Shown in pieces: positions 1,855 to 2,542 of a DNA stretch of 61,492 nt (within the stretch, counting starts at the first letter, position 1; the number at the start of each line of letters is the position of its first letter). The translations under genes were made by a program, and so were the position numbers. The stretch is from a virus: IMG/VR virus record IMGVR_UViG_3300028786_000001, positions 1 through 61,492 of that record; one strand, written 5' to 3'. Under the pieces are notes generated by a model. The model was not told where the DNA came from, did no database searches, and saw nothing but the letters and a program-made list of their open reading frames with translations.

Positions 1855-1985
1855 TTACGGGGTAAAGTCTATGCAAGTACATATCTTTTGGATATGGCGT
1901 ACGGGATTGAACCGTATCGACGACAGGAAGCCTAATTTTCGTAGGCTACTGTTAACCGAAGTAACTCACATAATAGCCGCCGTAA
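1855..1985 (-). ncRNA. Y-RNA-like array unit A' with a partial permuted tRNA mimic
   Basis: Outer UUACGG/CCGUAA, inner AUGUGAG/CUUGCAU (two G.U). Module: 6-bp hairpin with loop CGAAAAU, T arm UACGG-UUCAAUC-CCGUA, loop-closed acceptor-like stem CAUAUC-CAAAA-GAUAUG. No D arm. Confidence 0.65.
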
Positions 1986-1991
1986 AAAAAC

Positions 1992-2127
1992 TTTAGAGGG
2001 AAAAAGCGCATCGGGTATTTTCGTGCTCTACCAACTGAGCTAACTGCCCATTTTCATGAGTAGTGAAGGACTCGAACCTCCGACCCGTCATTACAATTGA
2101 AGTAACCGATACAATAGCCGCTCTAAA
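1992..2127 (-). ncRNA. Y-RNA-like array unit B with a permuted tRNA mimic (YrlA-type)
   Basis: Outer UUUAGAG/CUCUAAA, inner GUAUCGG/CCGAUGC. T arm GGAGG-UUCGAGU-CCUUC, acceptor ACUACUCA-UGAAAA-UGGGCAGU (one A.C), UA, D arm GCUC-AGUUGGUA-GAGC. Confidence 0.75.
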
Positions 2128-2131
2128 TAAG

Positions 2132-2262
2132 TTTGCAAGGAAAAGGTGTACAGGAAATTTTCGCGTGCTAACCACTACACTACTAATCCTAAGATTAGAC
2201 CGGATTCGAACCGATGATTCGTCAGCCTGGATTGAAGTAACCCATACGATAGCCATTGCAAA
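2132..2262 (-). ncRNA. Y-RNA-like array unit C with a permuted tRNA mimic
   Basis: Outer UUUGCAA/UUGCAAA, inner GUAUGGG/CCUGUAC (two G.U). T arm AUCGG-UUCGAAU-CCGGU, acceptor CUAAUC-UUAG-GAUUAG, UA, D arm GUGU-AGUGGUUA-GCAC. Confidence 0.75.
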
Positions 2263-2269
2263 TAAAGTA

Positions 2270-2413
2270 TACGGGAGAAAAAGCGTACGCGTATAGCCGT
2301 TAAGCAAATCTTTTGCTCTACCAACTGAGCTACATCCCGATAGCTGTCGGGATGCGTGGGATCGAACCACGGACCCAAAGAGGGGAAGTAACGCATACAA
2401 TAGCAACCCGTAA
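2270..2413 (-). ncRNA. Y-RNA-like array unit D with a permuted tRNA mimic
   Basis: Outer UACGGG/CCCGUA, inner GUAUGCG/CGCGUAC. Anticodon-stem equivalent UCUUU/AAAGA, variable loop GGGUC, T arm CGUGG-UUCGAUC-CCACG, acceptor CAUCCCGA-CAGCUA-UCGGGAUG, UA, D arm GCUC-AGUUGGUA-GAGC. Confidence 0.8.
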
Positions 2414-2420
2414 TAAGATA

Positions 2421-2542
2421 TGCAGGAGAAAAGTAAAATCAGTGATTGCCCTACCAATTGGGCGACGATACCGCAAGGATATCGACAAGGTTCGAACTTG
2501 CAATTTCTGAGTAGAAGTAACTGACTTAATAGCAACCTGCAA
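2421..2542 (-). ncRNA. Y-RNA-like array unit E with a permuted tRNA mimic
   Basis: Outer UGCAGG/CCUGCA, inner AAGUCAG/CUGAUUU. T arm GCAAG-UUCGAAC-CUUGU, acceptor CGAUAUC-CUUGC-GGUAUCG, UC, D arm GCCC-AAUUGGUA-GGGC. Confidence 0.75.

Follow-up and report, generated by a model that had tools for sequence, protein, structure and literature searches.

The viral genome record IMGVR_UViG_3300028786_000001 (IMG/VR, positions 1 to 61,492; this whole stretch of 61,492 nucleotides (nt) is referred to here as the window) contains five repeat units, designated E, D, C, B, and A', which are very probably phage-encoded Y RNAs of the YrlA type. The units occupy positions 2542-1855, read 5' to 3' on the minus strand, and this strand carries every feature described at 1855-2542. 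They belong to an array of nine co-oriented Y-RNA-like units that is interrupted by tRNA-Trp and tRNA-Gln and stands directly upstream of a complete rsr gene, the orthologue of Ro60. The nine units lie 110-1770 nt upstream of rsr and on the same strand, within the distance of approximately 4 kb used as the location criterion for YrlA. The five units have the architecture of YrlA, covary as a structured RNA, are linked to rsr, and are homologous to YrlA. They represent a divergent, multi-copy instance of an RNA family that has already been described, not a new principle, and their main new feature is the number of units.

Architecture of the five units

The two ends of each unit are complementary. 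A short stem strand opens the 5' end and is followed by an unpaired base, GG (or UG), CUAU, a further single base, a second stem strand of 7 nt, and UUACUUC. The 3' end has the 7-nt complement of that second strand, then 2-3 bases, UUUUUCC, and a strand complementary to the first stem, and a variable module sits between the two ends. In E, D, C, and B, the module comprises a 5-base-pair (bp) T stem, a closed acceptor-like hairpin that follows it directly, two bases, and a D arm, without an anticodon loop. The initial annotation had proposed permuted heads of this kind in B, C, D, and E, and the reading of the sequence, the model matches, and the covariation reported below agree with it. Its further statement that the heads cannot decode is borne out by the missing anticodon loop. 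The D arm of all four heads has a 4-bp stem and an 8-nt loop with A14, R15, GG, and A21. The closed stems of E, D, C, and B have 7, 8, 6, and 9 positions, respectively, with one A.C mismatch in B, and their loops have 4-6 nt.

The individual heads are as follows, and the T loops UUCGAGU, UUCGAAU, UUCGAUC, and UUCGAAC annotated for B, C, D, and E were all found on reading the sequence. Unit E has the T arm GCAAG-UUCGAAC-CUUGU and a closed stem CGAUAUC/GGUAUCG of 7 bp with a 5-nt loop, followed by U8-C9 and the D arm GCCC-AAUUGGUA-GGGC; its positions 15 and 48 form an A15:U48 pair. Unit D has the T arm CGUGG-UUCGAUC-CCACG and a closed stem CAUCCCGA/UCGGGAUG of 8 bp with a 6-nt loop, followed by UA and the D arm GCUC-AGUUGGUA-GAGC. 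Two annotated elements were likewise confirmed by direct reading of unit D: GGGUC, a variable loop that precedes the T stem, and UCUUU/AAAGA, which flanks the head as the equivalent of an anticodon stem. In unit C, the T arm AUCGG-UUCGAAU-CCGGU and the closed stem CUAAUC/GAUUAG (6 bp, 4-nt loop) precede UA and the D arm GUGU-AGUGGUUA-GCAC. In unit B, the T arm GGAGG-UUCGAGU-CCUUC and the closed stem ACUACUCAU/AUGGGCAGU (4-nt loop) precede UA and the same D arm as in unit D.

Unit A' had been annotated as having a T arm and a closed acceptor stem without a D arm. Its T arm (1916-1900, loop UUCAAUC) is present and its D arm is absent, as stated; the supposed closed acceptor is a 6-bp hairpin (1896-1880) set off from the T arm by 3 unpaired bases. 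Because of this offset and the lack of a match with the head model R2 described below, we regard the head of A' as degenerate.

The order of the elements is settled by the pairing of the acceptor strands. Within the four full units, 7, 7, 7, and 6 of 7 positions pair, compared with 1-3 of 7 when the strands of adjacent units are joined in the gene order of an ordinary tRNA. The permuted reading is therefore the right one, as had been argued in the initial annotation, and ordinary tRNAs assembled from the D-arm and T-arm halves of neighboring units were ruled out.

Two further features of the units were noted. On the 3' side of unit D (2272-2313, minus strand), the D arm is followed by A, by AAAGA, by the 7-nt run UUUGCUU, which resembles an anticodon loop with UGC in its center, and by AACGGCUAUAC, a second copy of GGCUAU. 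This linker may be what remains of an anticodon loop, or recombination between units may have left it behind. The spacers between units (for example, 2550-2543, 2420-2412, and 1089-1080, minus strand) are short, conserved, and U-rich (AUACUUUAUU, AUAUCUUAUU, ACUUAUUU, and AGUUUUUUU), and similar runs follow the units of relatives; these spacers may be processing sites or weak termination signals.

Covariation of heads and scaffold

We aligned 45 homologous head modules from 26 sources. The results revealed that 98% of the cells were paired, compared with 38-48% in slid controls. In the closed acceptor, compensatory changes occurred in all seven pairs (7/7), and 97.4% of the cells were paired. 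The signature of tertiary contacts was also present: A14 was invariant, U8 was found in 42 of the 45 modules, the T loop read UUCRANN, and both G18G19 and UUCRA were present. The tertiary (Levitt) pair 15:48 covaried, being G:C in 28 modules and A:U in 11 of the 45, and unit E is of the A:U type.

The scaffold formed by the unit ends was examined in the nine units of the window. The model comprised a helix P1 (5 bp), a one-base bulge, a 2-bp GG/CC helix, an internal loop, and a helix P2 (7 bp). In this model, 98.4% of the cells were paired, as against a mean of 64.6% in shuffled and 38-57% in slid controls, and compensatory changes were found in 12 of the 14 pairs. The 5' and 3' ends also paired with each other in 9/9 units on unconstrained folding. 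The internal loop was conserved, with CUAUN on its 5' side and NN-UUUUU on its 3' side. A strict scaffold finder applied to 81 sources, namely the window and 80 viral loci, detected 84 units on the strand of rsr, one on the opposite strand, and none in shuffled sequence.

Model searches, tRNA callers, and folding

Two covariance models of the head were used. Model R1, with 63 positions, was built from the four full units of the window with the loops padded with N, and model R2 was trained on 36 modules that all came from other contigs. Since R1 had selected these 36 modules, R2 is not wholly independent of the window. When R2 was run over the whole window, on both strands and with filters off, it gave exactly four matches, which were units B, D, E, and C (E 5.5e-15 to 1.8e-10). 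The next-best matches were the T arms of two genuine tRNAs, with E of about 0.1; neither unit A' nor the unit upstream of E (U1) was matched in this search.

The Rfam YrlA model, which is independent of the window, matched all four full units in a 2-kb search with permissive thresholds (22.4-29.7 bits, E 7e-4 to 0.09). The initial annotation had assigned the heads to the YrlA type with Rsr as the partner. In agreement with this, a complete Ro60/Rsr gene is adjacent, the scaffold covaries, and YrlA was the only non-tRNA Rfam family that matched several units in the permissive search. The proposed check of the array by ARAGORN returned two true tRNAs, Trp and Gln, and no call on the heads, and Rfam at its gathering thresholds gave the same two. 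At permissive thresholds, a further Rfam tRNA match of 22.9 bits at 2057-2188 proved to be an out-of-register artifact bridging units C and B.

With minimum-free-energy folding alone, C and B adopted exactly the three-hairpin fold, whereas other folds competed with it in D and E. An exact pattern scan of viral contigs with GGCTAT-N8-GTTACTTC produced single matches per contig, which is about the level expected by chance for 14 specified bases according to a rough estimate.

Classes of tRNA-like heads

At least three classes can be distinguished among the four heads. The D arm of units D and B (UA, GCUC, AGUUGGUA, GAGC, A) is the canonical one of YrlA and occurred in 29 of 52 modules. Unit E (UC, GCCC, AAUUGGUA, GGGC, A, combined with A15:U48) and unit C (UA, GUGU, AGUGGUUA, GCAC, G) differ from it and from each other. 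The nearest matches of these two D arms were in other contigs, not in the window. The D-arm region of unit E was 95% identical to that of a head in phage contig L204 (position 3597) and 90% identical to that of one in L031 (position 5510), and the D-arm region of unit C was 89% identical to that of another head in L204 (position 3328). L204 encodes an Rsr, P0007, that shared 55% identity with the Rsr of the window over the 300 residues searched. E and C thus appear to be old, retained paralogues, which hints that the head classes have different partners.

We also compared the heads with the ARAGORN-called tRNAs of the loci, a comparison that is valid for the D arm only. Units D and B were generic (Trp, Phe, Gly, and Pro), unit C was nearest to His and Gln, and unit E weakly resembled Pro. 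Some relatives have D arms that presumably resemble those of Escherichia coli tRNA-Glu and tRNA-Leu. One speculative extension, which we consider rather improbable, is that phages maintain a whole set of identity-specific tRNA mimics built on one shared Ro scaffold, each recruiting or decoying a different tRNA-binding enzyme or defense nuclease, with some of them opened by RNase P into CCA-ended RNAs of two pieces.

Comparison with known Y RNAs

Chen et al. (2014) defined YrlA as an RNA encoded beside rsr and on its strand and reported it from 254 bacteria and 22 phages. Its features are a 5' motif GNCGAA(N)G (the proposed contact with Rsr), a conserved YUAY leading into the V region, and the order T arm, acceptor-stem (AS) stem-loop, and D arm. 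TruB and DusA introduce pseudouridine 55 and dihydrouridine into YrlA, and the L-shaped fold was argued from covariation of positions 15 and 48 (PMC4201824). YrlA binds Rsr and forms an L shape (PMC4201824; 10.1101/312249), as seen in the crystal structure of the head of Salmonella Typhimurium YrlA (Wang et al. 2018, bioRxiv 10.1101/312249). The initial description of the heads is therefore the published one. In the modular plan proposed for Y RNAs, a Ro-binding stem formed by both ends is joined to a distal effector module (10.1101/312249), and the scaffold of the nine units fits this plan in having a covarying stem formed by the ends.

The units of the window agree with YrlA (RF02553) in their same-strand linkage to rsr, the long stem formed by the ends, YUAY (here UUACUUC) leading into the V region, the sequence of T arm, closed stem, two bases, and D arm, the covariation of 15:48, and the absence of an anticodon loop. 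They differ in their 5' motif, which is G(G/U)GCUAU(N)R instead of GNCGAA(N0-1)G and is a graded variant at the same position; in their scores, 22-30 bits against a threshold of 69; and in that the locus has four full heads and one decayed head, two of which, E and C, deviate from the nearly invariant D and T stems.

Other systems share parts of this organization. In Deinococcus radiodurans, Yrn1 and Yrn2 are likewise among several Y RNAs that are polycistronic with a genuine tRNA, tRNA-Asp, upstream of rsr, and Yrn1 tethers Rsr to PNPase. Yrn1 differs from the window's heads in that its T-like and D-like elements have the other orientation with an intervening stem-loop at the position of the anticodon, and no modification was found in its D loop. 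The Ro60 of Thermus phage phiLo binds in vitro two Y-like RNAs encoded just upstream of it and also host PNPase, with ternary complexes being formed (PMC12135203). The phiLo locus resembles the window in that a phage Ro60 has Y-like RNAs (Yrl1 and Yrl2) immediately upstream, but it has just two RNAs, these have the CGAA motif, and the term "tRNA-like" is never used in PMC12135203.

Proposed mechanism

The scaffold is likely the binding site for the phage's own Ro60/Rsr ring. The distal ends of E, D, C, and B would form L-shaped tRNA look-alikes in which the Y-RNA stem stands where a tRNA has its anticodon arm, with A' as a decayed version. We infer that the units of the window are transcribed, processed, and bound by Rsr, and we infer the kinds of partner that they may have. 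A single transcript carrying seven long units, two tRNAs, and two short units could start at a promoter between the upstream open reading frame (ORF), which ends at 2736, and U1, and could run to the terminator at 966-940. The tRNA-processing enzymes and other host RNases would cut this transcript into separate RNAs at the tRNAs and at U-rich spacers such as AUACUUUAUU. Each RNA would then be loaded on phage Rsr through the bulged helix and the GGCUAU loop, and the L-shaped heads might dock tRNA-binding host proteins or an exoribonuclease such as PNPase in a particle resembling RYPER, which is described for D. radiodurans and Salmonella (PMC4201824). Bound Y RNA may also gate access to the cavity of Rsr. 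By analogy with the RYPER of these two bacteria and with Thermus phage phiLo, the complex might redirect a host exoribonuclease or another RNA enzyme during infection.

Several observations weigh against assigning the units to functional YrlA RNAs. None of the four full units reaches the Rfam YrlA gathering threshold of 69 bits with its 22.4-29.7 bits. Recognition by Rsr is assumed, since the 5' motif is GGCUAU instead of GNCGAA, and units E and C may not share the usual partner of YrlA because their D and T stems deviate from sequences that hardly vary among YrlAs. The head alignment (A5) was fitted to R1, which favors the structure tested, although the margin over the controls is large; the scaffold alignment of the nine units (A6) was registered by hand with N padding and leans the same way. 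The folding z-scores of the heads are modest (-1.0 to -2.8), and energy supports the heads weakly; the proposed head structure consequently depends on covariation and motifs, not on energy. Finally, the array and rsr are separated by a terminator and might thus be expressed independently of each other.

Alternative explanations

The alternative closest to the YrlA assignment, and one that would modify it without replacing it, is that the heads are opened in vivo. RNase P would cut 5' of the acceptor 5' strand in E, D, and B, and the upstream fragment would be trimmed and given CCA, producing a two-piece Y RNA that could perhaps be charged. Such opening has a precedent. In Mycobacterium smegmatis, YrlA has a 7-bp stem; RNase P cleaves this RNA in vitro, and molecules that are cut and carry added CCA are found in vivo, with stem length as the proposed determinant (PMC4201824). 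Like the array of the window, this YrlA is encoded upstream of rsr in a precursor with more than one Y RNA and has a 7-bp acceptor-like stem. The stems of E, D, and B have 7, 8, and 9 positions and are stacked on 5-bp T stems, and in unit D, an A and then a C come after the 7-bp stem. These features show that the annotated statement that the RNAs have no free CCA end and cannot be aminoacylated applies to the primary transcript and was otherwise too strong. The acceptor loops of the window differ from the M. smegmatis case in being short, just 4-6 nt, and they contain no CCA; the base that would become the discriminator is paired in D and B; and S. Typhimurium YrlA and D. radiodurans Yrn1 are uncleaved (PMC4201824). 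We consider opening of the window's heads possible but unlikely. In several relatives, acceptor loops start with N-CCA or N-CAA right after the 7-bp stem (L006:5593, L009:3348, L004:5608, L011:4093, L031:5366, L080:5583, L060:5046, and L060:4887). These loops are mostly long, 14-20 nt, and resemble an encoded tRNA 3' end with its trailer, and by analogy with M. smegmatis, these heads are candidates for opening by RNase P and repair of CCA.

The heads could also act mainly as decoys or sponges for host tRNA-directed defense nucleases, toxins, or modification enzymes, with Rsr just stabilizing them; the initial annotation had put forward decoys as a plausible role, next to adaptors. The presence of four different heads in one 61-kb phage and the conservation of head classes between phages whose Rsr proteins are about 55% identical would suit this idea, and a Ro60-like protein of phage Bas63 that adjoins tRNA-like genes counters the ppl defense system (PMC11482910). 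Anticodon nucleases usually target the anticodon loop, however, which the heads do not have, and the comparison of D arms assigned no tRNA isotype to the heads; a role chiefly as decoys is therefore doubtful in our judgment.

Two other explanations have far less in their favor. Wang et al. (10.1101/312249) raised the possibility that RNAs with the order 3' half, closed acceptor, and 5' half are permuted or split precursors of tRNAs, to be cut and religated into ordinary decoding tRNAs. In the permuted tRNA genes of Cyanidioschyzon merolae, as far as they are described in the account of Soma et al. (2007) given in 10.1101/312249, the 3' half also precedes the 5' half, the primary transcript contains the acceptor stem as a closed loop, circularization completes the anticodon arm, and a splicing endonuclease and a ligase carry out the maturation. 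Unit D even has an AAAGA stem followed by the 7-nt run UUUGCUU. In contrast to those genes as so described, no unit of the window has a 7-nt anticodon loop between both strands of the anticodon stem, position 37 in the run of unit D would be U, and the unit ends form a long conserved stem of the Ro type, not a bulge-helix-bulge. ARAGORN and Rfam placed no tRNA there apart from the bridging artifact. The absence of RtcB, an RNA ligase, and a splicing endonuclease among the scanned phage ORFs argues further against maturation into ordinary tRNAs, and we find this explanation scarcely credible. It is only slightly less remote that the heads are functionless junctions between the T arm of one tRNA and the D arm of the next, left by a decaying tandem tRNA array, or that the region instead encodes a protein. 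Tandem tRNAs are known to produce false YrlA-like matches (PMC4201824), and we saw such matches at tRNA-tRNA junctions in L041, L050, L054, and L224. In addition, a 180-codon ORF starting with TTG extends across the region (1993-2535). Against the remnants stand the pairing of acceptor strands within and not across units, the covariation of all seven acceptor pairs in homologues, and the conserved scaffold that every unit carries on the rsr strand, with its near-exclusive detection on that strand by the finder. The ORF has no Pfam match and was rejected as a protein gene. Both variants are accordingly highly improbable, and the interpretation of the units as YrlA-type Y RNAs is retained.

Relatives in other genomes

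The Rsr relatives on viral contigs amounted to 352 stretches, and 80 of these loci were taken for the comparison. Most of the compared loci without tRNA arrays had head modules 100-700 nt upstream of rsr and on its strand. The flanks of these modules followed the scaffold of the window, in the order stem, GUAGCGAUA or a variant, stem, GUUACUUC, V region, head, stem, UUUUCUC, and stem. The 5' motif was graded among relatives (GGCGAU, GGCAAU, GGUGAU, and AGCGAA) and occupied the position of GGCUAU in the window. The relatives scored 33-45 bits with the Rfam YrlA model, below the threshold of 69; the whole clade is thus a divergent YrlA lineage lying under the curated threshold.

The four closest Rsr relatives that we looked up, P0003, P0007, P0011, and P0012, were on Logan contigs and showed 52-57% identity. 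The gene-free gaps of 1.1-2 kb upstream of their rsr genes held 3, 4, 1, and 4 head modules, respectively, and one of these gaps was interleaved with four genuine tRNAs. Two contigs of metagenome-assembled genomes (MAGs), L214 and L215, had four modules each without tRNAs. Among the loci whose matches were checked against tRNA calls, the four full heads of the window are thus the largest count but not a unique one. The count of nine scaffold units is, by both counting methods, indicatively the largest among the viral loci and the four Logan loci, with the GTDB loci standing outside this count. Because the criteria of the strict unit finder had been fitted to the window, it undercounts relatives (up to 3 units), and a loose count of motifs reached up to 7-8 elsewhere. 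Searches of the 80 viral loci with blastn and nhmmer using the non-tRNA heads of U1, U6, and U7, together with U8, U9, and the segments between the tRNAs, revealed no conservation.

Many rsr genes stood directly downstream of arrays of 7-27 genuine tRNA genes (L224, L219, L234, L251, L041, L050, and L054); tRNA arrays, Y RNAs, and rsr thus tend to go together. In L022, a tRNA-Asn called by ARAGORN at 5750-5824 overlaps a Y-RNA head at 5795-5853 that has full scaffold flanks. This call is doubtful because it runs into the scaffold-flanked head.

These comparisons bear on the use of the locus. Four distinct heads, decayed or non-tRNA heads, and two minimal units on one scaffold constitute a compact natural comparison set for the partner of YrlA heads, and the recurrence of at least two head types in another phage contig, L204, could help identify that partner. 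Current annotation misses the clade, since the Rfam threshold excludes every unit and, in L022, a tRNA call runs into a Y-RNA head.

Organization of the array and the phage genome

The features of the array are listed in Table 1. In the direction of transcription, the order is U1, E, D, C, B, A', U7, a hairpin region, tRNA-Trp, a structured spacer, tRNA-Gln, two long hairpins, U8, U9, and a terminator-like hairpin.

Table 1. Positions of the Y-RNA-like units, tRNAs, and associated features in the window
Feature	Position	Strand	Description and evidence
U1	2551..2668	-	Scaffold (P1, GGCUAU, P2, UUACUUC ... UUUUUCC, P1') with non-tRNA-like head; end pairing, scaffold covariation, strict finder
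Unit E (U2)	2421..2542	-	Scaffold and head (T arm, closed acceptor, D arm), core 2506-2447; R2 50.1 bits, E 3.8e-11; Rfam YrlA 22.4 bits
Unit D (U3)	2272..2411	-	Head (T arm, closed acceptor, D arm), core 2376-2314; R2 64.9 bits, E 6.1e-15; Rfam YrlA 29.7 bits; direct sequence reading
Unit C (U4)	2134..2262	-	Head (T arm, closed acceptor, D arm), core 2220-2164; R2 47.5 bits, E 1.8e-10; minimum-energy fold has three hairpins
Unit B (U5)	1996..2123	-	Head (T arm, closed acceptor, D arm), core 2086-2024; R2 65.1 bits, E 5.5e-15; Rfam YrlA full-length alignment 27.2 bits; minimum-energy fold has three hairpins
Unit A' (U6)	1855..1986	-	Scaffold and degenerate head: V-like hairpin, T arm, 6-bp hairpin, no D arm; folding z = -3.0
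U7	1740..1846	-	Motif variant AGUUAG / GUUUCCU with compensatory A-U in the 2-bp helix; head not tRNA-like; folding, covariation, strict finder
tRNA-Trp (CCA), genuine	1564..1634	-	ARAGORN; Rfam tRNA 53.7 bits
tRNA-Gln (UUG), genuine	1306..1377	-	ARAGORN; Rfam tRNA 64.1 bits
U8, short	1090..1151	-	Scaffold closed by a small loop, YrlB-like hairpin type; folding, covariation, strict finder
U9, short	1010..1079	-	Scaffold with small head; folding, covariation, strict finder
Intrinsic-terminator-like hairpin	940..966	-	11 bp followed by a T run; ends the RNA array about 40 nt before the rsr start codon
rsr (Ro60 orthologue), residues 1-300	1..900	-	Pfam TROVE, E 1.4e-14

The remainder of rsr (residues 259-496), with a Ro60-type vWA domain (vWA_Ro60), lies at 61491-60778. 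In a tblastn search, the 496-residue protein P0001 matched both ends of the window, giving a complete Ro60/Rsr with TROVE and vWA domains. An exact direct repeat of 127 nt occupies the termini (1-127 and 61366-61492). The repeat and the splitting of rsr across the ends indicate that the window was assembled as a circle and represents a phage genome of about 61.4 kb.

Several segments of the array region were noted beside the listed features. The region at 1640-1739 (minus strand) has a stem AGGUAGU/ACUACCU around approximately 80 nt and a U-rich trailer like those after Y units. It contains GGCGAU and CGCGAAUG, which resemble Ro-motif variants of relatives, and its fold z-score is just -1.5; it may be a tenth, divergent Y-like unit. 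The segments at 1156-1305 and 1378-1470 (minus strand) are strongly structured (z = -4.2 and -4.0 relative to shuffles), with long hairpins at 1305-1250 and 1248-1156. They contained no Y-RNA motifs and had no match in the 80 viral loci, and they may be further small RNAs of the array transcript. At 968-1010 (minus strand), a unit-like restart (GCUG-U-GG-CUCGA-AGGAUGG-CUACACA) without a 3' partner strand is followed by the terminator hairpin and looks like a truncated half-unit with a canonical CGAA. A sigma-70-like promoter, CTGACA-16-TATAAT (11/12), at 925-952 (minus strand) overlaps the terminator. This near-consensus site suggests that rsr may be transcribed separately from the RNA array, with the reservation that the count of such sites in the region is not above chance.

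The window has a G+C content of 39.9% and encodes the proteins of a tailed phage, including the large and small terminase subunits, portal, major head protein, prohead protease, DNA polymerase, primase-helicase, and exonuclease. A megablast search with its first 25 kb against 50,697 phage records gave no match, and the nearest cellular relatives of its Rsr were in MAGs of Bacteroidota and Verrucomicrobiota. The genes at 3720-4181, 4777-5277, and 5784-6305 (minus strand) and at 58514-58966 (plus strand) comprise two sigma factors of the extracytoplasmic function (ECF) type, a circularly permuted YpsA/SLOG-family protein beside a UvrD-like helicase, and a stand-alone response-regulator receiver domain.

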